Below, piece after piece: positions 16,479 through 60,572 of a stretch of DNA of 64,000 bases. Numbering within the stretch: position 1 is the first letter of the stretch; the number at the start of each line of letters is the position of its first letter. Both the position numbers and the translations under genes were made by a program. Below the pieces are notes generated by a model. That model was not told where the DNA came from. It did not search any database and was given only the letters and a program-made list of their open reading frames with translations. Origin of the DNA: a candidate division WOR-3 bacterium (GTDB lineage: Bacteria > Hydrothermota > Tepidihabitantia > Tepidihabitantales > JBDRVQ01); assembly GCA_039801905.1 (NCBI GenBank), contig JBDRVQ010000004.1, positions 2,332 to 66,331 on the forward strand, in the 5' to 3' direction.

Positions 16479-16899
16479 TTAAGACCTCCAAAAGGCTTTT
16501 TAATATAAAGCATTTTTTCCTCATCCAGCCCGGAAGCTGGATTGGTTAATTTTAATTGAGGAATGGAAAAAGTCAAGGATACACTTGGCTATAATGTTCC
16601 TAAATAGTCTATAGACCATTCAGGCTTAGATCGGAAGAAGATTGTGGCTAAAGCAAAGGTATTATGGAGACAGAATATAAAATTTATGTTAAAAAACTAT
16701 TCGCTCAAATTAAGAAGGTAAGTATTTATGGCAATCGTCCTCTCTCAATCTTATGCTCAAAAAACAGACTTCCCCAATACGCCCGACAAGTCCTTTTAGA
16801 AAACCTATTAAGAAGGGTGGTGTGATTAAATATAAAGTAAAAAAGGTTTTGCTTTTTTAGAGCCGCTTAAAACTATTCAGAATTATCTTGACCAGGACT

Positions 16900-17300
16900 A
16901 AATTTCGCAAGTTTTTCATAATTTTTATTATTCCATCCTAATTAAATTAGGCGACATAAAAGTCGCCTAACAAGAAAAGCCCTTTCTTTTTAAGTCTTTT
17001 ATTCTCAACAATTTATTGCTTTTGAGATAAATTTTAAGTGAGCCCTACCACCGCCTCCTTTATTACCTCCCCTCCCACCTTTTATCCACGCTTCGGACGA
17101 TGCTTTCGGGAGTAATTTTTCCGGGAGTTAGATCTCTAATTTTTCCCCTAATTTCTTTCGGAAAGAGATGCCTGGTTTTCTCACTGGTTTCTTCTTTCGG
17201 AAAAGGCATATGAAAATTTCTAATTTCTTACCTAATCCCCGGACTAATTTTGAAAGGGGAGGAATGGGTAGCGAGATATTCGGTTTTTTAAATCTCTTCT
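16900..17300 (+). repeat. Copy A of a ~400-bp repeated upstream element, containing a GGCGAC-ataaaa-GTCGCC hairpin, a second hairpin with a T-run, and about four TCTAATTT boxes
   Basis: Aligns over its whole length with 38545-38945. Shared blocks include ggcgacataaaagtcgcct, ctttcttttaagt, accaccgcctcc, ctaattt repeated several times, ccggactaattttg and gagatattcggtttttt. Confidence 0.7.
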
Positions 17301-17302
17301 GT

Positions 17303-17331
17303 TTGACAAAGCCTCAAATGTCAAGTAAAAT
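17303..17331 (+). promoter_or_regulatory. Sigma70-like promoter: TTGACA, 17-nt spacer, TAAAAT, with the ATG 6 nt downstream
   Basis: ttgacaaagcctcaaatgtcaagtaaaat, then agatt, then the ATG at 17337. Confidence 0.5.
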
Positions 17332-18686: not shown

Positions 18687-19987
18687 TGGAAGAGGTTATT
18701 GAGAAATTGAAAGGAAAGGTTGAAGGTTTTGAGATCTTAAAAGACGAAACCTTAACCACCCTCTGTGAATTTCGGGGAGATGAGCCCTATTCCTTGGCGA
18801 CAAAAGAGGAGGAAGGTTTGGGTTTGAGGGTGATCAAGGATGGAAAGTTGGGTTTTGCCAGCACTACGGATGGAAGCCGAATTTCGGAACTGGTGGCATC
18901 CGCGATCCAGACTGCCAATTACGGAGAGAAGGTGAATTTTACTTTTCCGAAGGAAGTTCCTCCGGGAAAGTGCCGACTGGTTAACGAGAAAGTTAAGAAG
19001 ATCTCTTCGGAACAAATCTTCTCTTTGGGAAGGGAGATTATCGCCGAGACGAAAACACGATTTCCCCAATTTAAGATTGACTTAAACTTACACCATACTA
19101 TCTTCCGGCGCCGACTTGTCAACTCCTCCGGATTTATTGGGGAATACGAAAGGGTCTTTTACTCCCTTTCTTTTAGCGGGTTGATTGTGGCAGACGATGG
19201 TTTGATTTGGATTTATGACTATAAGAATCTCTCTTCGGGCGAACCTTTCTCCCTTTCCGAGTTTGTTGATCAGCAGGTCTTTTTAGCCCAGAATTCTTTG
19301 AAGAAGGGGCGCTTAGCGACCAAGACCTATCCGGTAATCTTTGCCCCTTCTTATGGTCTGGTACAATTCTTTTTGCCACTTTTGGTGGGGGTGAACGGGA
19401 AGAATTTTCAGAAGAGGATCACACCCCTCTTGGGTCAGGAAGGGAAAGAGATCGCTTCCCCTTTGCTTTCGGTTTATGATGATGGTCTTTTGGATTACGC
19501 TTCTGGCTCTGCCCCTTTTGATGGGGAAGGGATAGCCAAAAGACAGACGCCTTTAATAGAAAAAGGGGTTTTTAAGAATTTCCTTTTTGACTTGAAGACC
19601 GCTCACCACTCGGGTCGGCAAAGCACCGGGAATGGGGAACGCCATTATAGTAGCGAACCCAACCCCGGTTTGAATAATCTCTTCGTGGCGCCGGGAAAAG
19701 ACGAACTTTCCGAGGCGTTGCGGGAAGTTCAGGAAGGGCTTCTCGTTTATGAGGTAGTAGGGGGAGGGCAGTCAAATCTCCGGGCGGGGGATTTCTCTTT
19801 TAGTGTCGGTTTGGGCTTTAAGATTGAAGATGGGGAGATTAAAGGACGGGTGAAGGATTGTATGCTCGCCGGTAATTTTTATGAGGCACTAAGGAGGATC
19901 TCCCGAGTCGGGAAGGATTTGAAGGATCTGGGCAATTTCTATCTTCCCTTTATCAAATTGGAAGATATGAAAGTGACTACCAAATAA
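18683..19987 (+). CDS. TldE/PmbA-family protein (second copy)
   Basis: The ATG at 18683 overlaps the upstream stop (ATGA), and GGAGGA lies upstream. The ORF opens at a TTG at 18665. Sequence is PmbA-like. Confidence 0.7.
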   Translation: MMEEVIEKLKGKVEGFEILKDETLTTLCEFRGDEPYSLATKEEEGLGLRVIKDGKLGFASTTDGSRISELVASAIQTANYGEKVNFTFPKEVPPGKCRLVNEKVKKISSEQIFSLGREIIAETKTRFPQFKIDLNLHHTIFRRRLVNSSGFIGEYERVFYSLSFSGLIVADDGLIWIYDYKNLSSGEPFSLSEFVDQQVFLAQNSLKKGRLATKTYPVIFAPSYGLVQFFLPLLVGVNGKNFQKRITPLLGQEGKEIASPLLSVYDDGLLDYASGSAPFDGEGIAKRQTPLIEKGVFKNFLFDLKTAHHSGRQSTGNGERHYSSEPNPGLNNLFVAPGKDELSEALREVQEGLLVYEVVGGGQSNLRAGDFSFSVGLGFKIEDGEIKGRVKDCMLAGNFYEALRRISRVGKDLKDLGNFYLPFIKLEDMKVTTK

Positions 19988-22404: not shown

Positions 22405-25400
22405 TTATCTTTTGAGGTAGAAGTTAAAAGGGATGGAAACCCAAACCCGAACGGGAATATCCTTTTGCCGGGCGGGACTAAATTTTGCCTGCCGAGCGGC
22501 AACTAATGCCGCCTCATCCAAGGCATCGTTACCCGAAGATTTTAAGATTTGGGCATCAATCACTGAGCCATCAACCTCAACTAATACCTTAACAATTGTC
22601 TGTCCTTCAATCCTTGCCCGGCGAGCCATCTCCGGATATTCGGGTTTGGGAATAGAAATGGGGTTCGGTTTTATCTCCACTTTGGCATAAGGGACAATCT
22701 GGGGTGTGGTCTCTTCTTTTGGGGGAGGGGTTGTCTCAACCGGTGGTTGGGAAACGACCGTTTCCGGTTTTGGTTTTACCGCTGGAATTGTCTCGGTTCT
22801 TCGGGCTAAGGTTTCCGCTCTTGGTCTTTGGGCAAGAGTTTCCGGTTTGATCCTCTCTTCTGGAGGAGTTAATGTCTCTTGGGGAACGAGAGTGGCTTGG
22901 GTTGTACTCTCTGGTTTAGTCGCCGCATAAGATATCTTCTTGGGTTTCGGTCGGGAGGAGAGAGCCAGAAAGAGGGATAATGCCAATACTAAAACTATCC
23001 CTACGCCAATTAAAGCGGTTTTCGGAATTTTTGGCAGTTTCTTTATCTTAGGATAAGCAACTTTTACCTTTTCTTCTTTCACCGGGATTAACTCTTTCCC
23101 TTTACTCAAGATGACTTTTACAACTTCGCCTTCTTTTAAGGTCTCACCAGGCAGGGGGGATTGTTGAATGATAGAATCTTTGGCATAAGTTTCAGAATAC
23201 TCTTCCCCTTCAATAAGCAGTTTAAGGTTCAGGTCCCAAATAATTTTTTCGGCTTCCTTTCTCTTTTTCCCCAATAATGACGGGACAACAATTATCTTTC
23301 TCTCAATCGGTTTTTTTCCTTTACTCAAAATTACCCGAATCGTGCTTCCCTCGGGTAATTCTTCACCCGGGTCTGGGGTTTGACTCAAAATGCAATCTTT
23401 GGGAATTTTCTCGGAGAAGTCCTCCCATTCTATAACCAACTTTAATCCGAGTTTACTTAGTTCTTTTTCCGCCTCGGAAATTGTCTTACCGATGAGGTTG
23501 GGAGATCGGACCGGCTCTTTGCCTTTACTTAATACCACCCGGATCAAGCCCTCAGTCACTACTGCTTCGGGTTCGGGTGACTGCTTGACGATTCTCCCTT
23601 TCGGAATAACGTTATGATATTCCCAAGATTCAGTAACTAACTTTAAGCCTAAATTAGAAACAATCTTTTCCGCCTCGGATAGGGTCTTGTCAATCAGGAC
23701 TGGGGCTTTAAGTGGTCTTTTCCCTTTGCTGATGACGACCTTTACTTCTTCTCCTAATTTCAATTTCGCTCCCGCGGCTGGAGTTTGGCTCATCACTACC
23801 CCGGGAGGCAATTCTGAGAATTCTTCCCCCTCTATTTTAATTTTTAGTCCCAAGGAGGATAGAATCTTTTCTGCCGATTTTTTCTCTTCGTTGATTAAAA
23901 GGGGAACTCTCACCAACTCCGGTCCTTTACTCTCAATGATTTTGAGAATATCACCTTCTTTCAATTCGGCACCGGCTTCGGGGATCTGCTTAAAGATTAT
24001 TCCGGCCGGAAATTCATTGGCGTACTCTTCTTCTATGATTAACCTTAAATTGAGGTCGGCGATAATTTTTTCTGCCTCTTCCTTCTTCTTTCCGATAAGG
24101 GGAGGGACTTTAATAATTTTCACCACCGCTGGTTTCTTGCCTTTACTGAGCACCACTTCCACCACCCCTCCCGCTTTTAAGTTTTTGCCGGACGGTGGAT
24201 TCTGGTCTACGACGGCATTAGCCGGGATATTTTCCGAGAAATCTTCCCTTTCAATTTTTATTTTAAGTCCGAGGCTATTAAGGGTTCTTTCTGCTTCTTT
24301 TAATTCCTTACCGATGAGGTTGGGGACGGCAATTAGTTTTTCCCCTTTACTTAAAATCACTTTTACTGTTTCTCCCTTTCTTAGAGATTCGTTTGGAGAT
24401 GGGGATTGGCGGAGGATTCTTCCCAGGGGGATATCTGGGGAATAATCTTCTCCGGCTACGACCAGTTTCAGTCCTAAGGGGTAGAGGATTTTTATCGCCT
24501 CGCCTTCGGTCTTTTCGGTCAGGTCGGGGACTTTAATGAGGGGGAGACCCTTGCTTAGGGTCACCTTTACACTTTCTCCCTCTTTCAATTGGGTTTCGGC
24601 AGGGGGCGATTGTTTTAGGACGCATCCCTCTTCAATGGTTTCGGAATAGTCTTGATTTTCAACCAGTAATTTTAAGCCCAAATTCTGAAGGAGGCTTTCC
24701 GCTTCCTCCTTTTTCCTGCGGACTAATGATGGGACCTTGACGACTTTCACGACAGGTGGTTTCTTCCCCTTACTCAAAATGACCTTCACCGCCTCCCCGG
24801 ATTTCACTTCCGTCCCCCCGGCTGGCTTCTGGTTAATGATACTATTGGCGGGAACTGTCTCCGAGAAATCTTCCCTTTCAATTTTTATTTTGAGTCCGAG
24901 GCTATTAAGGGTTCTTTCTGCTTCTTTTAATTCCTTACCGATGAGGTTGGGGACGGCAATTAGTTTTTCCCCTTTACTTAAAATCACTTTTACTGTTTCT
25001 CCCTTTCTTAGAGATTCGTTTGGAGATGGGGATTGGCGGAGGATTCTTCCCAGGGGGATATCTGGGGAATAATCTTCTCCGGCTACGACCAGTTTCAGTC
25101 CCAAGGGGTAGAGGATTTTTATCGCCTCGCCTTCGGTCTTTTCGGTCAGGTCGGGGACTTTAATGAGGGGGAGACCCTTGCTCAATATTATCTTTATCGT
25201 TTCCCCTTCTCTCAATTGGGTATTAGGCGCGGGAGTCTGTTTTAAGACCATACCCTCCGGTATCTCTTCGGAATATTCCTCACCTTCAAAGATGATTGTC
25301 AATTTATTTCTTTTTGCTTCCGCTTCCGCTTCCGCTTTTCTTTTGCCGACCAGATTGGGACAAAAGACTAATCTTTTTCCTTTACTTAAAATAACCTTTA

Positions 25401-26877
25401 CACTTTCTCCTTCTTTCAATTGGGTGTTAGGTTCGGGCGACTGTTTTATGATAGAGCCTTCGGGGATGGTTTCGGAATAATCTTCTTTTTCGATCATTAA
25501 TTTCAGGCCCAAGTTAGTTAAGGTCAATTCCGCTTCCTTTTTTGCTTTGCCCACCAGAGGAGGGACCTTAACGATTTTGACGAGCGGAGGTCTCTTTCCT
25601 TTGCTGAGAATAACTTTAATCACCTCCCCGAATTTCACTTCCGTACCCACGGCTGGCTTCTGACTGATGATACTATTGGCGGGAACTGTATCTGAGAAAT
25701 CTTCCCCTTCAATCTTCAGTTTTAAACCCAGAGGAGCAAGGAGTCTCTCCGCTTCCTCTTTCCCCTTACCGATAAGGAGGGGCACGGGGATTGGTTTTAA
25801 CGCCTTCCCTTTGCTGACGATTATCTTTACCGCTTCCCCTTCTCCCATCAATGTCCCGGGTTCCGGGGTTTGGTAGAGGATTAAACCTTCGGGGGTGATT
25901 TCTGAGGATTCCTCCCCTTCCAGAAGGATATTTAATTTCTGGGCATTGGCGATCGCTTCCGCTTCCTTTTTCGTTTTTCCAACCAAGGCTGGGCAGGGAA
26001 TGGTTTTTACCTTTTCCACGATCGGTATCTTTTCCTCGGGGGGTTGGGTTAAGGCGGCGAGAAATTCTTCGCAGGTCTGGAAGCGTTCGTTGGGCTTTTT
26101 GGCTAATGCCTTTTCCACTATCTTTTCCCAGGCGAGAGGGATTTTGGGATTTTTCTCCCTAATTTTCGGGGGTGGGGAGAAGAGGTGCTGCTCTTCTACC
26201 GAAGAGGTCTCGGTCCTCTTGAAAGGTACTTCCCCGGTAGCCATTTCGTAAAGGGTAATTCCCAAAGAATAGATGTCGGAGGATTTATTTAGCGGTTTAT
26301 TTAATATCTGCTCCGGGGACATATAAGGGGTAGTGCCCACCCGAATTTCTGAGGCGAGACCCACTCTTTCCCCACTAATAATCCGGGCGATGCCAAAATC
26401 GGTGACCTTAACCTCCCCCGTGGAGGTGAAGAGGATATTGGATGGTTTTAAGTCAAGATGGAGAACGCCCAGGTTGTGGGCATAACCAACCGCTTCTAAG
26501 ACTTGGCGAAAGATAGAAAGAATCTGCTCTTCGGGTAGCGGTCCTTTTTTAATCAAATCGCTTAGCGTTCTTATTCTTTGCCCATCGGGAAGCGTCATCC
26601 CTTCCAGGTATTCCATTACGATATAATAGACTCCTTCCTCCTGGAAGAAATTATGGATGAGGACGATATGGGGATGTTTTAATTTTGCTTGGGTTTCCGC
26701 TTCTTTGAAGAAACGTTCCTTAAATTTTGGTTCTTTGGTTAAGAAGGTGTGGAGGGTCTTTAAGGCAACCGGTTGTTCTAAGACGCGGTGGATCGCTTTG
26801 TAAACGGTGCCAAAACCACCCTCACCGATTTCTTCAACGATTTTATAATAACCAAAGCCCACAATCCTTTCCGCCAT
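22405..26877 (-). CDS. Ser/Thr protein kinase fused to 14 PASTA repeats, one transmembrane helix, a Pro/Thr-rich spacer and a TonB C-terminal domain
   Basis: Kinase subdomains (GEGGFGTVYKA, HLDLKPSNILF, DFGIA, TTPYMSPE). Fourteen ~70-aa units each ending VILSKG. TM TALIGVGIVLVLALSLFLALSS. P/T/E-rich linker. C-terminal PKPEYPEMARRARIEGQTIVKVLVEVDGSV...SSGNDALDEAALVAARQAKFSPA...PVRVWVSIPFNF matches the TonB_C consensus. Confidence 0.8.
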   Translation of the reverse strand: MAERIVGFGYYKIVEEIGEGGFGTVYKAIHRVLEQPVALKTLHTFLTKEPKFKERFFKEAETQAKLKHPHIVLIHNFFQEEGVYYIVMEYLEGMTLPDGQRIRTLSDLIKKGPLPEEQILSIFRQVLEAVGYAHNLGVLHLDLKPSNILFTSTGEVKVTDFGIARIISGERVGLASEIRVGTTPYMSPEQILNKPLNKSSDIYSLGITLYEMATGEVPFKRTETSSVEEQHLFSPPPKIREKNPKIPLAWEKIVEKALAKKPNERFQTCEEFLAALTQPPEEKIPIVEKVKTIPCPALVGKTKKEAEAIANAQKLNILLEGEESSEITPEGLILYQTPEPGTLMGEGEAVKIIVSKGKALKPIPVPLLIGKGKEEAERLLAPLGLKLKIEGEDFSDTVPANSIISQKPAVGTEVKFGEVIKVILSKGKRPPLVKIVKVPPLVGKAKKEAELTLTNLGLKLMIEKEDYSETIPEGSIIKQSPEPNTQLKEGESVKVILSKGKRLVFCPNLVGKRKAEAEAEAKRNKLTIIFEGEEYSEEIPEGMVLKQTPAPNTQLREGETIKIILSKGLPLIKVPDLTEKTEGEAIKILYPLGLKLVVAGEDYSPDIPLGRILRQSPSPNESLRKGETVKVILSKGEKLIAVPNLIGKELKEAERTLNSLGLKIKIEREDFSETVPANSIINQKPAGGTEVKSGEAVKVILSKGKKPPVVKVVKVPSLVRRKKEEAESLLQNLGLKLLVENQDYSETIEEGCVLKQSPPAETQLKEGESVKVTLSKGLPLIKVPDLTEKTEGEAIKILYPLGLKLVVAGEDYSPDIPLGRILRQSPSPNESLRKGETVKVILSKGEKLIAVPNLIGKELKEAERTLNSLGLKIKIEREDFSENIPANAVVDQNPPSGKNLKAGGVVEVVLSKGKKPAVVKIIKVPPLIGKKKEEAEKIIADLNLRLIIEEEYANEFPAGIIFKQIPEAGAELKEGDILKIIESKGPELVRVPLLINEEKKSAEKILSSLGLKIKIEGEEFSELPPGVVMSQTPAAGAKLKLGEEVKVVISKGKRPLKAPVLIDKTLSEAEKIVSNLGLKLVTESWEYHNVIPKGRIVKQSPEPEAVVTEGLIRVVLSKGKEPVRSPNLIGKTISEAEKELSKLGLKLVIEWEDFSEKIPKDCILSQTPDPGEELPEGSTIRVILSKGKKPIERKIIVVPSLLGKKRKEAEKIIWDLNLKLLIEGEEYSETYAKDSIIQQSPLPGETLKEGEVVKVILSKGKELIPVKEEKVKVAYPKIKKLPKIPKTALIGVGIVLVLALSLFLALSSRPKPKKISYAATKPESTTQATLVPQETLTPPEERIKPETLAQRPRAETLARRTETIPAVKPKPETVVSQPPVETTPPPKEETTPQIVPYAKVEIKPNPISIPKPEYPEMARRARIEGQTIVKVLVEVDGSVIDAQILKSSGNDALDEAALVAARQAKFSPARQKDIPVRVWVSIPFNFYLKR
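24232..25197. repeat. Near-identical tandem direct repeat (period 627 bp, ~335 bp nearly identical) inside the kinase gene, duplicating three PASTA units
   Basis: Sequence 24232-24570 matches 24859-25197 with only 2-3 mismatches. The antisense ORFs 23687-24445 and 24737-25072 end in an identical 70 aa. Confidence 0.8.
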
Positions 26878-32751: not shown

Positions 32752-32794
32752 AAATTTTTTTGGGAAGAGAAACGTCTCTTATTTTCCCTATGCT

Positions 32795-32995
32795 GATGAG
32801 TCTTAAAATTAGTCCGCCGATGAGAAATTTTATCATTTCCCTCCCTGGACCTTTTTCCCCCACCTTTCTTTTTCCCTTTCCCTTGCCATTGATTGGGCGT
32901 TTCATTCTTCCTTTTATTAAACTATAAATTAGGTCATTTAAAAGAGGAGAAAGGGCTGGGAGGTGGTGGTAGGGGGGATAACCTTTGAAAGGTGA
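32795..32995 (-). repeat. Diverged, truncated, inverted copy (C) of the repeated upstream element
   Basis: The reverse complement carries ccccctaccaccacctccc, gataaaatttctcat and cggactaatttt in the same order, and at similar spacing, as copies A and B. Confidence 0.4.
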
Positions 32996-33001
32996 TATCT
33001 C

Positions 33002-33646
33002 CTATGATACAACCCAACCAATCACTTTCTTAATCTCTTCTATCCCAATCGCCCCTTCCCGTAAGATGCGGGGTGGGGTTTGGGTGAGGTCAACAATAGT
33101 TGACTCTTTACCGATTTCGGTCTTTCCGCCATCAAGGATTAAATCAATCTCTTCCCCAATACTTTTTATCACATCCTCAGCGGTTAAGGGGCTTTTCTCA
33201 CCATGGCGGTTAGCGGAGGTGAGGGTGAGAAAGGTTTTACTTCTTTCTATTATCTTTAAGGCAACGGGCGAACGGGGAATTCTCACTGCGATATTATCTC
33301 GGTGACCGCTCAAAGTTAAAGAGAGGGAAGGTTTTTTCTTTAAGATACAGGTGATTGGACCCGGGGAGTATCTTTTGAATAGTTCTATTGCCAAAGCGGG
33401 TATCTCCTCACAGATTTGGTAAAGGTCACTAATATCTTTTATCCCAACTATTAAACCTTCGCTCAAAGGACGTCGTTTCACCAAAAAGACCTGGCGCACC
33501 GCGGATTCGTTTTTAATATCACAGGCAAGGCCATAAACGGTTTCCGTTGGTAAGGCGACTAGACCCCCTTCTTTAATAATTCTTACCGCCTCTTCTATTA
33601 CCGTCTCTTCGGGCTCTTTCGGATTTATTTTAATTATTTTCGCCAT
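33002..33646 (-). CDS. tsaC: L-threonylcarbamoyladenylate synthase (TsaC/YrdC family)
   Basis: YrdC fold motifs LPTETVYGLACD and VFLVKRRP. 214 aa. Confidence 0.75.
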   Translation of the reverse strand: MAKIIKINPKEPEETVIEEAVRIIKEGGLVALPTETVYGLACDIKNESAVRQVFLVKRRPLSEGLIVGIKDISDLYQICEEIPALAIELFKRYSPGPITCILKKKPSLSLTLSGHRDNIAVRIPRSPVALKIIERSKTFLTLTSANRHGEKSPLTAEDVIKSIGEEIDLILDGGKTEIGKESTIVDLTQTPPRILREGAIGIEEIKKVIGWVVS

Positions 33647-38559: not shown

Positions 38560-38945
38560 GATTATTTTTAAGGCGACATAAAAGTCGCCTATTAAAAGAA
38601 GGGTCTTTCTTTTAAGTTTCGCATTTCCAATAACTTAATTATTTTAGGTTAAATTGAAGTGCACCCCACCACCGCCTCCTTCACCACCCCCCTACCCACT
38701 TCTTATCCGGCATTTTATCCCTAATTTAAGGGGGGATTTTATCTCCAATTAAAGGTCCAATCTCTTCCCCAATTTCTTCCCGGAAAAAAGGGATGGTTTT
38801 ATCCCCAATCTCTTCTCCTGAAAAAGGGAGAAGAAAATCTCTAATTACCTTCCCAATTTCCGGTCTAATTTTGGGCGGGAAAGAATTGGGAGTGAAGTAT
38901 TGAGTTTTTTGGTTTTCCTGCCTCACGTCGAGCGCGTATTAGGTC
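38545..38945 (+). repeat. Copy B of the ~400-bp repeated upstream element
   Basis: GGCGAC-ataaaa-GTCGCC at 38572-38589. TCTCCAATT, CCCCAATTTC, TCTCTAATT and GGTCTAATTTTG boxes. TCTTCTCC-tgaaaaag-GGAGAAGA hairpin. Aligns with copy A. Confidence 0.7.
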
Positions 38946-38947
38946 TC

Positions 38948-38975
38948 TTGACAAAAGACTTTTCTTGGGTATAAT
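38948..38975 (+). promoter_or_regulatory. Sigma70-like promoter: TTGACA, 16-nt spacer, TATAAT, with the ATG 7 nt downstream
   Basis: ttgacaaaagacttttcttgggtataat, then agaagt, then the ATG at 38982. Confidence 0.5.
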
Positions 38976-56306: not shown

Positions 56307-57471
56307 CTACGGAATGATAGCCTTTTCTCCTTGTAAGTAATAAATCCCGCTGGGTAATTCTTTTACCGGAATAGAGTTATCACCTTCCTTTAATCTCAAA
56401 TCCTTCACCTTCTTGCCCAATGAGTTATAGAGGGAAATCTTCTTTGCCTTTTGTGGATTCTTTATAAGAAGTGTTTTATCCTTTATCGGGTTTGCGACGA
56501 TTCTTAAATCAACCTTTCCGGTTTCTCTCTTCTGATTATCTTCTATACCCGGGCCATAAAACTGGTAGATTCCTAAACCACTCCCACTCTCAGCAACATA
56601 GGCATAAGAAGAAACATAAACGCCGCAAGCATAGCCTGGTGTCTCATAATAACCAACCTCATGGAGATTTCGGGGGTTTGAAACATCAATCACCCTTAAA
56701 CCAGCACTATAATCGGCAACATAGGCAGAGGGAGAAGAAACATAAACCTCATGAGCCTCGCCTGGTGTATCATAAGAGTCCACCTCGCGGGGATTAGTGG
56801 GGTCGGAAATGTCTATCACCCTTAAACCAGACCTTCCAGCAGCAACATAGGCATGAGGAAAAGAAATGTAAACATCCCAAGCATAGTCCGGTGTATTATG
56901 AGAGCCCACCTCCCGGGGATTAGTTGGATTGGAAATGTCTATCACCCTCAAACCACCCCCAAAGTCGGCAACATAGGCATGAGAAGAACAAACATAAACA
57001 CCACAAGCCCCGCCTGGTGTATCATAATAACCGACTTCCTGCGGATTAGTAGGATTTGAAATATCAATCACCCTTAGACCAGCATAACCATCAGCAACAT
57101 AGGCATAGGAAGAGGAAACATAAACATCAGAAGCCTCACCTGGTGTATCATAGTAGCCGACCTCCTGCGGATTAGTTGGGTTTGAAACATCTATCACCCT
57201 TAAACCAGAATCTCTATCAGCTACATAGGCATAAGGGAAAGAAACATAAACCTTATAAGCCTCGCCTGGTGTTTCATAAGAGCCGACTTCATGGGGATTT
57301 CTTGGGTCGGAGACATCTATCACCCTTAACGCTCCATCGGCAACATAGGCATAGGAAGAAAAAAGATAAACACCATAAGCCAAGCCTGGTGTATCATAAG
57401 AGCCAATTGAACGAACGTTCAATGAGCCACCAAAAGAGAGGGTGAAAATGAATAAAAGGATATTTCTCATA
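56307..57471 (-). CDS. LVIVD-repeat protein with a T9SS CTD
   Basis: About eight repeats of ...YAYVADGYAGLRVIDISNPTNPQEVGYYDTPG.... Signal peptide MRNILLFIFTLSFG after AAGGAGGT. C-terminus ...SGIYYLQGEKAIIP. Confidence 0.6.
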
Positions 57472-57589
57472 ATGACCTCCTTCATTCCATTTATTTTGTA
57501 TAAACAACAAAATCTCAAAAAGCCTGCCTATAATTACTAAATATAATGATAAATTTTATCTTGTCAATAGTGCTTATATTCAATATTTA

Positions 57590-57900
57590 AACCTAAAAAT
57601 TTTTAAGTATTTTTATTAGGAGAGAAATTGGTAGGTGAAGGCGAAAGGGGTGGGGAAGGAATTTCTGAGATGTTTCCCCTCGCTTTTTCCCGCCTTTCTC
57701 TTTTCGTTTCTCTATTCCCTTTTTTCGGGCTTAGTGGCGACCTTTCTTTGGGGATATTTTCTATCCGGAATTTTCCCTTTTTAACCCTTCCTCAAGGTCA
57801 TCGGGAGGGTGGTCGGGGGGATAACCAAAGAAAACCAGTATCTTTCCTGATACAACCTTGTATCGGAGAAGAGACAGGTATGTATCTTGGGCGATACATC
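57590..57900 (-). repeat. Inverted diverged copy (D) of the repeated upstream element, lying 5' of the LVIVD gene
   Basis: The reverse complement carries ccccccgaccaccctccc, cccgaaaaaagggaat and ggaaaaagcgaggggaaacatctcagaaatt, collinear with copy B. A TTGACA-16-TATATT promoter sits between it and the gene. Confidence 0.45.
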
Positions 57901-58103
57901 CGAAAAATTAATCTCCGTCTTGATAGTCAAGGGCAGGAATAACTTTTGGCCGCTTCTTAAGACTTATTAATATAAGACTTATTAAAAAAGAAGAAGATTT
58001 CTCTATTATTTTCTTCACCCACTTAGAAAAGCAAACTTGGCGACCGCGGCATGGGATCCGGAATAAGAACTGGGAGCGGCTCGGGGTAATCGCGATAAAG
58101 AAG

Positions 58104-58759
58104 GTGATAAATACTAAAAAGAAAAACGGACCCTTTTATAAATTTTCCCAACTTTCCTACTCTATATTCTATTTCAAAATTACTAATTTTTTTTACTCCT
58201 TTTTCGGTCTCTATAAAGTAGATACCTTTTTTCAGTTCGTTTTCTTTTATGAGTCTGCCGGTTGCGTCATAGACTTTTGCCTTCTCCAGGGATATTTCTT
58301 ATCCCTTTTGTTATCTCCTTCTCTTCATTTATACCTGTGCCATAAAATTGATAAATTCCTAAACCAAAATCTTCATCAGCAACATAGGTATGAGAACTTG
58401 AAACATAAACACCATGAGCCCAGCCCGGTGTATCATAATAGCCGACCTCTTGTGGATTTTTTGGCTCGGAAACGTCTATCACCCTTAAACCAGCATCTCT
58501 ATCAGCAACATAGGTATAAGGACTTAAAATATAAACACCAGAAGCATAGTCCGGTGTATCATAAGAACCGACTTCCTGCGGATTGGTAGGATTTGAAATA
58601 TCAATCACCCTTAGACCAGCATAACCATCAGCAACATAGGCATAGGGAGAGGAAACATAAACACCATAAGCCAAGCCCGGTGTATTATAAGAGCCAATTA
58701 AACGAACGTTCAATGAGTCACCCAGAGAGAGTGAAAATGAGTAAAAAGATATTTCTCAT
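58104..58759 (-). pseudogene. Frameshifted, shortened paralog of the LVIVD-repeat CTD protein
   Basis: The ATG at 58759 (after GGAGGAGGT) gives MRNIFLLIFTLSG then a stop. A 1-bp difference from the intact paralog (ctctctctgggtga versus ctctcttttggtggc) shifts the frame. The LVIVD repeats resume in another frame (58267-58713). The CTD (KVYDATGRLIKENELKKGIYFIETEKG) lies in a third frame near 58110-58260. Confidence 0.55.
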
Positions 58760-58901
58760 AATGACCTCCTCCTTAAATTTATGTCAATATCTTATCCAAT
58801 TAGGAAACTCTGGGAATAATTACTTGACTTTTTTTTAATTCTTATTATAATATTATAGTCGCCCCCAGAAATAGATTAAGGGGCGAAAAGGAGAAGAGGT
58901 T

Positions 58902-60572
58902 ATGGTTAAATACTTTATTCTATTTTTAAGCCTGAGTGGGCTTATTTTTGCCCAAAATTTAGTCCTCCCCCCATACCGAGAACCAGGAAGGGGGATAACC
59001 TCCGAGAATAAAGAGGTTTCCGAAATCGTCATTCCGGAGATTAAAGAACCGGTCGGCTTCTCCAATTCTCTGGAAGGCTATATCCCAGCACGAGAGGTCC
59101 CTTGTGAAATTGAACCGCAGGTGGAATTTGTTAATCAAGAAGTCCCCTCCATTTTGGATTGGGGAACCGATGTGGCGATTGATACTTCTTATATCGCCAG
59201 TTATGATGTTGACTACGATATGACAACTGGTTATCTCTATGCCGCGGTTGCGCCGATGTTAGACTCTGTGGTTCGGATCTATCGCTCAACGGATAATGGA
59301 AGGCATTGGACTTATATAGGCTGGATGGGACACACCCCAAGAAGTATCTATTGGAATGTGGGTTTGATTGTTGCCCGGGGCGATTCCAATTTCATCTATG
59401 TCTTTATGAAGCATAGTAGAAATAATGGTGAGATCTATCTCTACCGCTGGACATTTGATTTTTCCCAATGGACTCATTATGCGGTTGCTACTGGTGCTGA
59501 TACGATTGATGAGTTTTCTGTTTGTCGGGATTACCGGTCCAACTATGGGTTATATTGTGAATGGCAAAACGAAAACCGCGGTGGCATTAACGCAAGACTC
59601 CATCGCTCCTTTACCTACGGTAGAACCTGGGATTCACAATTGGGTGGGAATGTAATTGATGCTCATATTTCCTTTGGTGCTACTTCCTATTTACTTTTAA
59701 CCTGGACCACCCCCGACCGAAATGGGGTTTACTTTCAAGACAATCGGTCCTACGGAGACCCCCTCTCTTGGCGTAATTTCTATAATGTCTCTTTTGATAC
59801 CTTTAACCATTATCGGCCAAGGGTTGCTTCGGTCCTAACTACTCCGGATAGTCAAGCCACAACCTGGGTTTTGTATGAGTATAACTGGCGCAATACCGGG
59901 GATTACGATGTTTGGTATGCGGTTCGGAGTCATGCTTGGGCGGATACCTGGCGCAGACGATATGGACTTAGTGTACGGTCCACACATGACGAATTCGCTC
60001 CGGATATAAAACACTATAAGTCTCTTAATTATCGTTGGGTCTGTGCTACCTATATGGCAGCGGATTCTGGTTGGGATGATTCGGTAAATGTCTACTGGAC
60101 CTATACCAATAAAGATACCCCTTATGTCTGGACAAGTCACCTTCGGGTCAATGATAGTTTATGGAATGAAGCCGGTTACCTGGGTCCAAAGATTATCTGG
60201 AATCCAACGGCAGCAGGTATTGGTGCGGTTGTCTTCTGCCGTGGTGGCTTCTTCCTATTCCCGCATGGTCTTTATATGGATGCGGTAATCTTCTCTGACA
60301 TCGCGGATAAGAATCTCAATAAGGCAACCGGTCTAAGAATCTCTTCTAATCCGGCAATCGGTCAGGTGAGATTCTATCCCACTTCAGGGACGAAATCGTT
60401 AGAAATCTATGATGCTACGGGCAAAATGATAAAATCCTTTACTAACCCTAAGAGTTCTATCTTGTGGAATGGTAGAGACGAAAGAGGGAAGATGGTCAAT
60501 TCCGGAATCTATATTATCAAGGCGAAGACGGAGCAAGGGGAAAGGAGCGAGAAACTTCTCTTCTTGCGCTAA
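58902..60572 (+). CDS. Secreted hypothetical protein with a T9SS CTD
   Basis: Signal peptide MVKYFILFLSLSGLIFA. C-terminus LRISSNPAIGQVRFYP...LEIYDATGKMI...NSGIYIIKAKTEQGERSEKLLFLR. AAAGGAG lies upstream. Confidence 0.5.
   Translation: MVKYFILFLSLSGLIFAQNLVLPPYREPGRGITSENKEVSEIVIPEIKEPVGFSNSLEGYIPAREVPCEIEPQVEFVNQEVPSILDWGTDVAIDTSYIASYDVDYDMTTGYLYAAVAPMLDSVVRIYRSTDNGRHWTYIGWMGHTPRSIYWNVGLIVARGDSNFIYVFMKHSRNNGEIYLYRWTFDFSQWTHYAVATGADTIDEFSVCRDYRSNYGLYCEWQNENRGGINARLHRSFTYGRTWDSQLGGNVIDAHISFGATSYLLLTWTTPDRNGVYFQDNRSYGDPLSWRNFYNVSFDTFNHYRPRVASVLTTPDSQATTWVLYEYNWRNTGDYDVWYAVRSHAWADTWRRRYGLSVRSTHDEFAPDIKHYKSLNYRWVCATYMAADSGWDDSVNVYWTYTNKDTPYVWTSHLRVNDSLWNEAGYLGPKIIWNPTAAGIGAVVFCRGGFFLFPHGLYMDAVIFSDIADKNLNKATGLRISSNPAIGQVRFYPTSGTKSLEIYDATGKMIKSFTNPKSSILWNGRDERGKMVNSGIYIIKAKTEQGERSEKLLFLR

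Follow-up and report, generated by a model that had tools for sequence, protein, structure and literature searches.

Four intergenic modules in a WOR-3 contig

The 64,000-nt stretch of DNA analysed here (the window; GenBank contig JBDRVQ010000004.1) comes from a candidate-division WOR-3 bacterium, and proteins identical to its own are also found in the metagenome-assembled genomes (MAGs) GCA_039801945.1 and GCA_039801865.1, among others. Four of its intergenic regions hold a non-coding module, labelled A to D. Module A lies in front of tldD, and module B between lpd and a gene for a cargo protein of the type IX secretion system (T9SS). Module C (32752-33001) lies between the converging stop codons of macB (32751) and tsaC (33002), while module D (57590-57900) is located between two minus-strand LVIVD genes. 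These modules represent a previously undescribed family of non-coding elements of 250-350 nt that is lineage-specific in candidate-division WOR-3; in the literature that we searched, we found no description of this WOR-3 12-nt module.

Modules A and B are 66% identical across 360 nt (nhmmer E-value of about 1e-112). The order of parts is a palindromic head, an AT-rich spacer with a TAnAnT box (in some subfamilies), a C-rich start unit of the form C.ACC.CC.CC., an array, a G-richer end and usually a T-run, which terminates six of eight copies. The array consists of about 15-20 degenerate 12-nt units that approximate nGGyCTAATTTy, with a pyrimidine (Y) and a C at unit positions 4 and 5 (frequencies of 0.83 and 0.82), all in a single unbroken register. 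Among aligned copies, CYAAT motifs sit at exact 12-nt multiples from one another, and homology starts 1 nt before the head and ends at the T-run. The A/B core, about 20 units in rows of 12, spans CCACCGCCTCCT to GTATTnGGTTTT, with AGGTCTAATTTT, TCCCCTAATTTC, TTGCCTAATCCC and TTCCCGAAAAAA as typical units. Each unit position has its own identity, which is kept between copies. The TAnAnT box lies about 7 nt 5' of GTGAGCCC in seven of seven copies, without a convincing -35 box, and the C/G ratio over the first 80-100 nt of the module strand is 3-5, placing it in the top 1-5% of the window.

The register is also maintained over evolutionary divergence. In the core of seven copies from two species, which differ at 24-38% of sites, the only insertions or deletions (indels) are deletions of 24 and 12 nt in copy L046. 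In this alignment, the AT-rich spacer (77 columns) contains about six small indels of 1-2 nt, a rate at which about 18 would be expected in the core. In most modules, the end of the array is followed by the downstream gene's own sigma-70-type promoter at a variable distance: a co-oriented promoter of this type lies 0-40 nt downstream of the module in eight of 11 independent copies. Copies L010, L231 and C have no downstream promoter, and the orientation bias toward the downstream gene (8/11, p = 0.11) is not significant. An earlier note on this window had described the motifs and the layout of the module, both of which hold, but missed its defining feature, the phase-locked 12-nt periodicity.

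C and D form a second subfamily

The earlier note had read C and D as inverted copies of the A/B module. We consider it very probable that both belong to the family. They are diverged, inverted members that are better described as a second subfamily, because they share a distinct head and have no AT-rich spacer. As in A and B, a palindromic head marks the 5' boundary, but it is subfamily-specific: A and B carry GGCGAC-N6-GTCGCC, whereas C, D and the ortholog of C on contig L102 of a relative have TTGTATC-N6-GATA(C/T) in common, followed by a T-rich stretch and GGTTATC (GGTTATCCCCCC). The C/D head adjoins the C-rich unit directly, the 75-nt spacer being missing.

All motifs quoted in the earlier note are present: the reverse complement of 57590-57900 holds CCCGAAAAAAGGGAAT and GGAAAAAGCGAGGGGAAACATCTCAGAAATT, and C holds TTAAAATTAGTCCGCC, gagaaattttatc and GGGAGGTGGTGGTAGGGGGGATAACC. 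In addition, GGGGGGATAACC occurs exactly twice in the window, at 32972-32983 and 57815-57826. The words shared with A and B, which had been taken as homology between copies, turned out to be mostly recurrences of the 12-nt unit rather than position-by-position matches. The proposed promoter into the minus-strand LVIVD gene was recovered, and D does keep the polarity of module, promoter and gene. Equally, C does lie between converging gene ends without a promoter, its best promoter-like match being weak (9/12).

The earlier note had made significant alignment scores of C and D against A and B the test of its claim, and nhmmer did not provide them. Using the model built from A and B and a six-copy model, C appeared at E-values of 1.5 and 8.5, on the minus strand and within noise, and D was not listed. 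Profile searches of this type are blind to C and D because their arrays conserve the period and not the position-by-position sequence. We judged local alignments against 300 dinucleotide shuffles. The C-D alignment scored 36 compared to 21.5 +/- 2.7 for shuffled sequences and was reached by one of the 300. The alignments of A with reverse-complemented C and of B with reverse-complemented D were reached by six and two of the 300, respectively, and those of B with C and of A with D were not significant. A broader nine-copy, sequence-only model (R1, filters off) was judged by its bit-score gap, since its E-values are visibly too optimistic. It recovered C on the minus strand at 32787-32982 with 24.1 bits, ungapped over 196 positions, against 11.7 bits for the best background match. 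D stayed within the background of this model, with a best match of 8.5 bits on the wrong strand. With the broader model, C alone reaches significance.

Periodicity provides a membership test that is independent of alignment. Lag-12 autocorrelation was high in all four modules (z = 4.4 in A, 5.3 in B, 3.0-3.7 in C and 5.3 in D) and absent from their flanks. The top three regions of 12/24/36-nt periodicity in the whole window were B, A and C, and the highest raw lag-12 value (0.415-0.431) belonged to D. A periodic 12-column matrix, trained only on copies from another species (JBDRVU, see below), scored z = 11.7 for A and 15.3 for B on the forward strand and about zero for control intergenic regions. 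Reverse-complemented C reached 9.3 (forward, 1.2) and reverse-complemented D 7.2 (forward, 5.2), so that the strand preference of D is weak. In a window-wide scan with this matrix, C ranked third and D fifth, barely over the coding-sequence background. Both arrays keep a single coherent phase, C over about 170 nt and D over about 200 nt. These independently derived phases put xGGTTATCCCCC and the C-rich unit (CTACCACCACCT in C, CGACCACCCTCC in D) on unit boundaries. Family unit 0 has the same register (CCACCGCCTCCT in A and B, CTACCGCCTCCT in L231). At its other end, the D array terminates in CCTACCAATTTC TCTCCTAATAAA.

It is improbable, in our view, that D is non-homologous, that is, an independent low-complexity purine/pyrimidine stretch upstream of LVIVD that has words in common with C and A/B by chance. 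Such an origin would explain why every alignment-based model misses D, why its best R1 match falls on the wrong strand, why the periodic matrix scores both of its strands and why it ranks just above coding sequence in the window-wide scan. It would leave unexplained the highest lag-12 value in the window and a coherent phase of about 200 nt, which moreover separates TGGTTATCCCCC from CGACCACCCTCC exactly as the phase of C separates AGGTTATCCCCC from CTACCACCACCT, in the register of family unit 0. D also has about 60 nt of head motif in common with L102 and with C, a formal member, and its layout is complete and in family order (head, C-rich unit, array, promoter, LVIVD gene). Homologous parts are likewise paired with unalignable arrays in modules L231 and L104 of a more distant relative, a parallel that supports accepting D. 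The membership of D would then draw on periodicity, register, the head motif common with C and layout, with alignment not in support. AGGTTATCCCCC, which stands just before the C-rich unit in C, occurs once more on the minus strand at 58990-59001, inside the coding sequence of a 556-aa T9SS protein, where we judged it to be a chance match.

Table 1. Coordinates of the modules, their parts and the adjoining promoters and gene in the window.
Feature	Position	Strand	Remarks
Copy A	16950..17289	+	Head GGCGAC-ATAAAA-GTCGCC at 16950-16967
Copy A internals		+	TAAATT box 17028-17033 in AT-rich spacer; units 0-19 at 17048-17287; T-run 17284-17289
tldD promoter, 3' of copy A, TTGACA-17-TAAAAT	17303..17331	+	
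C array, about 14 twelve-nt units	32787..32960	-	Includes CGGACTAATTTT at 32805-32816; model R1, matrix, phase
C units AGGTTATCCCCC and CTACCACCACCT	32961..32984	-	Second is the C-rich start unit, family register
C head hairpin GTATC-ATAGGA-GATAT	32995..33010	-	Overlaps tsaC stop codon
Copy B	38572..38910	+	Head at 38572-38589
Copy B internals		+	TAAATT box 38650-38655; units 0-19 at 38669-38908; T-run 38904-38910
T9SS-cargo gene promoter, 3' of copy B, TTGACA-16-TATAAT	38948..38975	+	
LVIVD-repeat protein with T9SS sorting domain	56307..57470	-	Likely start ATG 57470, after AGGAGG
LVIVD gene promoter TTGACA-16-TATATT	57540..57567	-	11/12 consensus positions (promoter scan)
D array, about 16 further degenerate 12-nt units	57612..57803	-	One coherent phase; lag-12, phase track, matrix
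D units TGGTTATCCCCC and CGACCACCCTCC	57804..57827	-	Second is the C-rich start unit, register of family unit 0
D head hairpin 2, GTATC-AGGAAA-GATAC, then TGGTTTTCTTT	57838..57853	-	Same motif in C and L102
D head hairpin 1, ATGTATC-GCCCAA-GATACAT	57880..57899	-	Read from sequence

The family in related genomes

All copy numbers are lower bounds, as they derive from fragmentary MAGs. An exact search for the 18-nt A/B hairpin (GGCGACATAAAAGTCGCC) in one genome per species identified six matches in the WOR-3 MAG JBDRVU01, and the remaining 36 matches were scattered and attributable to chance. All six JBDRVU01 matches are full copies, five with the same part order and a sixth (L010) with a flipped loop. 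JBDRVU represents a sister species, with a tldD that is 92% identical as protein and 80% at third codon positions. It carries an ortholog of A and at least seven module copies. Together with the variants in GCA_900174595.1 described below, these copies bear out the genome-wide family that the earlier note had suspected.

In L010 (JBDRVU01 contig 2, 1929-1946), the head reads GGCGAC-TTTTAT-GTCGCC: its 6-nt loop is reversed relative to -ATAAAA-, while the stem and all other parts of the module are as usual. The palindrome may therefore act as a DNA-level unit in its own right, or an inversion or recombination event may have occurred inside it. A sigma-54-type promoter motif (TTGGCACGATTTTTGCT) occurs 3' of this module on the plus strand, at about 2405-2425, with no open reading frame (ORF) of at least 60 aa downstream of it.

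The genome GCA_900174595.1, whose tldD is 73% identical, contains two modules, L231 and L104, with a third type of head (GGGACA-N4-5-TGTCC / GGG(G)ACATATnTGTCC and a T-run). Their spacer and C-rich tract are clearly homologous, and their arrays are unalignable and both 12-periodic. The units of L231 are AAGSCTAATnnn, and those of L104 are pyrimidine-rich (nCCCTTAnCC) and lack CTAAT. Contig L104 also has a short, headless array of about eight units at 19269-19370 (GGTCTAACTTAA AGGCTGAGGAAA AGCCTAATCCAA ...), located between a classic intrinsic terminator (18978-19015) and a TTGACA box that precedes a DUF3108 gene. It scores 17 bits with model R1 and may represent a third, truncated form of the element.

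Beyond these genomes, a metagenome scan with the 18-nt head gave 53 matches, all of them chance matches to the hairpin only, and three scans of viral contigs found nothing related to the module. Short-read contigs (Logan, MAG) start or end at or near module heads, L102 at both ends and L230, L233 and L004-L006 at their starts. Contig breaks of this sort are what a repeat present in many copies would be expected to cause.

Insertion history and constraint

The gap between tsaC and macB, which measures 250 nt in the window, is 4 nt in L103 and 0 nt in L104. Likewise, the region upstream of lpd spans 127 nt in L103 and 86 nt in L104, compared to about 450 nt in the window. Since B and C are missing at the syntenic junctions of these relatives, we conclude that they are lineage-specific insertions.

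We estimated constraint for one locus (A) and one species pair (window versus JBDRVU). Differences affect 6 of 249 sites in the A core (2.4%), 23 of 257 in the flanking non-coding DNA (8.9%; Fisher p = 0.0018 versus core), 40 of 900 at codon positions 1 and 2 of tldD, and 92 of 450 at third positions (20%; p = 5e-13 versus core). This divergence, relative to the flanks and to tldD, indicates purifying selection on the A array that is at least as strong as that on amino-acid replacement sites. For D, the comparison with its ortholog in L235 is uninformative, because the whole LVIVD region is about 99% identical.

The two insertions differ in how they fare within the lineage. In L232, a very close relative (tsaC third positions 98.1% identical), B shows five differences over 365 nt and no indel. 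C shows 13 differences over 190 nt as well as deletions of 45 and 17 nt (p = 0.0014 versus B). Neither deletion is a multiple of 12, and the longer one takes out the C-rich tract. C is a decaying relic insertion: it is missing in syntenic relatives, and in L232 it has accumulated substitutions and out-of-phase deletions. The term relic used in the earlier note therefore proved apt.

Other features were observed in the neighbourhood of the modules. The second LVIVD gene, on the minus strand at 58267-58757 (to 58770 with the region of the ribosome-binding site (RBS) and signal peptide), is a truncated paralog without a T9SS sorting domain. Over the RBS, start and signal peptide, it (58724-58770) matches the main gene (57435-57481) at 94% identity. 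Its frame is apparently broken after the signal peptide, and it is probably a decaying tandem duplicate. In JBDRVT (L235), a 21-nt insertion (ATTTTTCCTTTCATATTTTAG) is found in the 5' untranslated region of the LVIVD gene, at window position 57538/57539 between the -10 box and the RBS; the remainder of the region is about 99% identical to the window. On the 5' side of copy A, about 350 nt (16479-16830) cannot be aligned with the sister species (L229/L236), where a phosphoribosyltransferase gene and not an S8 peptidase gene lies upstream of the A locus. The unalignable sequence and the different neighbour point to a synteny break that ends about 120 nt before the head of A. A terminator-like hairpin is located upstream of copy A at 16523-16542. 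Finally, a minus-strand PASTA/TonB_C Ser/Thr kinase gene (22405-26877) contains internal repeats of 201-219 nt (families D3-D10), and the length of its product varies from 1490 aa in the window to 1281 aa in L001 and 1329 aa in L236.

Coding, structured RNA and other known features

Arrays of this type are readily mistaken for genes. Owing to the repeat, stop codons are largely absent from four of the six frames, opposite-strand translations reading, for example, (E/K)I(R/G)x, and ORFs extend over the arrays at window positions 57628-57942 (+), in L235 (2931-3245), in L231 (9428-9745) and in L236 (9797-9970). The hypothetical proteins of 57-105 aa annotated across the arrays, none with a Pfam hit, are almost certainly spurious, as the repeat unit keeps the frame open. 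The best frames contain stop codons in three of seven copies, and every frame is interrupted in some copies. Conservation within the module has a 12-nt periodicity (p = 0.01) and no 3-nt signal (p = 0.49), and all six substitutions between the A orthologs are non-synonymous in every open frame. For these reasons, namely the stop codons, the missing 3-nt periodicity and the non-synonymous ortholog changes, we rejected a protein-coding gene or pseudogene with a tetrapeptide repeat.

A structured RNA found little more support. Rfam gave no match at the gathering score and only noise at E-values up to 1, and a tRNA gene search found none. B folds better than its shuffles (z = -4.4), while A does not (z = -1.9). 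Consensus folding was weak, and an RNAalifold covariation term of +1.21 lends no support. Single-sequence folds suggested a large RNA in which the C-rich start pairs with the G-rich end; this was likewise unsupported by RNAalifold and by pair counts and was discarded. The only RNA structure consists of the head hairpin, which is invariant, and a 3' helix with weak support. The latter is 87% paired, its covariation score was reached by 13 of 500 shuffles, and it is rich in G-U pairs, which fit the module strand only.

Several known DNA features were also considered and set aside. CRISPR arrays have near-identical repeats of 23-50 nt and unique spacers, unlike the contiguous, degenerate 12-nt units of the module. 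The head is not an intrinsic terminator: the scan called none at any of the four heads in the window, and no T-run follows the A/B head. In C and D, a T-rich stretch begins 3 nt past a 5-bp stem with only two G-C pairs. A DnaA-box or oriC function, prompted by TTATCCAC in A and L008, was dropped because the motif is present in only two of seven copies. Phased A-tracts cluster at 10-12 bp (PMC3820752). Helical phasing of A-tracts misfits a 12.0-bp period without drift, and we retained it only within the DNA-level alternative discussed below.

A proposed mechanism and its rivals

Because the register is held over 240 nt, internal indels are excluded and the distance to the promoter is free, the array points to a cooperative oligomer with one protomer per unit. 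In the reading that we tentatively favour, the phase-locked array would serve as a track for an oligomeric protein, with a protomer bound every 12 nt, and this track would be read in nascent RNA of the module's orientation. Transcription would begin either from a gene upstream or from the -10-like box of the module itself. In the A/B subfamily, the TAnAnT box ahead of GTGAGCCC could start the transcript, and in C, D, L008, L046 and L104, co-oriented upstream genes could supply it. The reader would be the termination factor Rho, loading on C-over-G-rich, unstructured RNA with a C every 11-13 nt, and the module would stop or attenuate transcription ahead of the promoter of the next gene.

A Rho utilisation (rut) site has been defined as 78 nt with more C than G and a C every 11-13 nt (PMC6407284). 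A/B-type copies have this composition, and C and D have it in their first two to three units only. Further support for reading by Rho comes from the Y-C positions, the C/G ratio of 3-5 at the start, the lack of conserved structure beyond the head and the 3' helix, whose G-U pairs fit the module strand. We prefer this RNA reading over a protein scaffold on the DNA because of the 12-nt period, the strand asymmetry and the periodic pyrimidines of L104, which lack CTAAT. The two fit about equally well, and we hold our preference with somewhat less than even confidence.

A number of observations weigh against Rho as the reader. Rho needs only Y-C, yet the CTAAT word is kept across subfamilies, and orthologs are also conserved at positions outside the unit consensus. 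For roughly half of the copies (A, B, L007, L013, L034 and L010), no co-oriented gene lies upstream, so that the model needs an unproven internal promoter, for which there is a good -10-like box and an unconvincing -35 box. On the module strand, the arrays of C and D contain long stretches that are purine/G-rich. Conservation of the head extends to its loop, which is flipped in L010, a pattern that resembles a DNA-level palindrome, and hairpins of 5-6 bp would be weak for a hot-spring organism. Finally, D was significant in no nhmmer or profile-model alignment, whether from A and B, from six copies or from nine.

Alternatively, the 12-bp units may be direct-repeat sites for a DNA-binding protein that polymerises on the duplex, with the head as an operator-like nucleation site. 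The resulting nucleoprotein filament upstream of promoters would activate, silence or insulate. We rank this possible, if rather doubtful, explanation close behind Rho. It accommodates the proximity of most independent copies to a co-oriented sigma-70-type promoter, although such a promoter is missing in L010, L231 and C, the orientation bias is not significant, and the variable distance between array and -35 box leaves no fixed phasing to RNA polymerase. The strict, indel-free register would follow from polymerisation, but 12 bp is not the helical repeat and the sites would spiral round the helix. A DNA-binding protein would also account for CTAAT being kept beyond the need of Rho, in subfamilies 1 and 3 and in C, and for ortholog conservation that reaches beyond consensus positions; the array of L104, however, keeps the period without CTAAT, and the strand asymmetry of C-rich start and G-rich end would be left without a role. 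The head, a 6-N6-6 palindrome whose spacer is conserved too and is flipped in L010, suits an operator, and promoter-less C decays where B in the same genome pair does not.

Two further explanations compete with both Rho and a DNA scaffold. The modules could be selfish, non-autonomous mobile elements, resembling miniature inverted-repeat transposable elements (MITEs) or depending on a recombinase, in which head and array are transposase or recombinase sites, host function is absent and C and D are older copies in a more advanced state of decay. Their sharp homology boundaries, absence of B and C from the syntenic junctions of L103 and L104, lineage-specific heads, presence at contig breaks (L102, L230, L233), number in a single MAG and the fast decay of C would all fit. 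We nevertheless regard this as unlikely: the head does not match the 3' end (GGTATTnGGTTTTT) as a terminal inverted repeat, the flanks of eight copies show no target-site duplication, and, in about 300 kb of sequence from the clade, no copy adjoins a gene for a transposase or recombinase. Mobility explains the spread but not the constraint, neither the purifying selection on the A core, at least as strong as on tldD codon positions 1 and 2, nor a register kept between copies that differ at 30% of sites. Slightly less probable still is a family of small-RNA genes, encoding a trans-acting non-coding RNA of about 250 nt with its own -10 box, a C-rich, single-stranded 5' part similar to an anti-Shine-Dalgarno sequence (CCGCCUCCU), a phased body bound by a chaperone and a 3' hairpin with U-run, and with mRNAs as its targets. 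The TAnAnT box in all seven copies and the T-run at the end of most would suit such a gene, although 8-11 nt separate the U-run from any stem, the scan called no terminator-like site, and subfamily 2 (C, D) lacks both spacer and -10 box. Copy-specific ortholog conservation is typical of RNA genes, and the 3' helix shows some covariation and many G-U pairs; against this, RNAalifold found no net covariation and a weak consensus fold, Rfam had no match, and the favourable folding of B is not repeated in A.

If a protein reads the track, whether Rho or a polymeriser that recognises CTAAT, the modules could form a new class of cis-elements: a dispersed, phase-locked 12-nt track that serves as an idealised loading platform, with a protomer on each unit, for a ring- or filament-forming protein and as a portable, oriented insulator or attenuator before promoters. 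We see a real, though less than even, chance that this holds.

Implications

Dispersed intergenic repeats are usually seen as selfish or structural filler. The module differs from this picture in its exact register over about 240 nt, its lack of out-of-phase indels among copies that differ at 30% of sites and the constraint on its core, which has diverged less between the sister species than the replacement sites of the adjacent tldD gene, a pattern that points to a cooperative interaction of one protomer per 12 nt, undescribed for chromosomal repeat families. If Rho is indeed the reader, the modules would provide a natural, sequence-defined test of the long-standing "C every 12 nt" rut model. 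They would be the most regular natural rut sites known and the first terminator module spread as a repeat family, as well as a thermophile-derived part that could be used as a portable terminator or insulator. Should a DNA-binding protein read the track instead, the modules would represent a regulon-wide promoter architecture in an uncultured phylum. In practice, annotation pipelines call spurious genes of about 57-105 aa over the arrays, and short-read assemblies break at the modules.

Comparison with known systems

Like rut sites, the module is C-rich and G-poor on one strand and unstructured, with C at a spacing of about 12 nt over at least 78 nt (PMC6407284). Natural rut sites, unlike the module, are loosely periodic, are not dispersed repeats and lack a conserved word. 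The WOR-3 module, in turn, has an exact period over 200-240 nt, the CTAAT word, a palindromic head and multiple copies, while termination is only proposed for it.

REP/BIME, Correia, ERIC and RUP elements are short, non-coding, multi-copy and intergenic, bear palindromes, are often close to promoters and vary in presence between relatives. The module resembles them in being short, intergenic, multi-copy, sharp-edged, variable in presence and equipped with a palindrome. It has no terminal inverted repeats, target-site duplication or REP-type GTAG palindrome, which distinguishes it from MITE-like and REP elements, and we know of no phase-locked 12-nt body under purifying selection in any of these families. 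Tandem short units that are intergenic and scattered around the genome also occur in the cyanobacterial STRR heptamers and the mycobacterial MIRU. Their units are near-identical and vary in copy number, whereas those of the module are individually conserved, nearly fixed in number and attached to a head and a C-rich start.

Head-to-tail direct repeats are likewise found in arrays bound by polymerising proteins. In parC/ParR, tubC/TubR (12-bp repeats) and the omega heptads, head-to-tail repeats of 7-12 bp nucleate cooperative filaments, often near promoters. Such iteron- or centromere-like arrays are single-copy, have 4-12 units and lie beside the partition or replication genes that they serve. 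The module is instead many-copy and lies beside unrelated genes, without an associated protein gene. Small RNAs of the RsaE/RoxS type are about 100 nt long and have clear hairpins and terminators, an unpaired C-rich anti-Shine-Dalgarno motif and several paralogs. The module likewise has a C-rich motif complementary to the Shine-Dalgarno sequence and several copies per genome, but it is at least 250 nt long, has no conserved structure and keeps a 12-nt register. It is the combination of a head, a C-rich start unit, phase-locked and differentiated units and strong purifying selection that sets the module apart.

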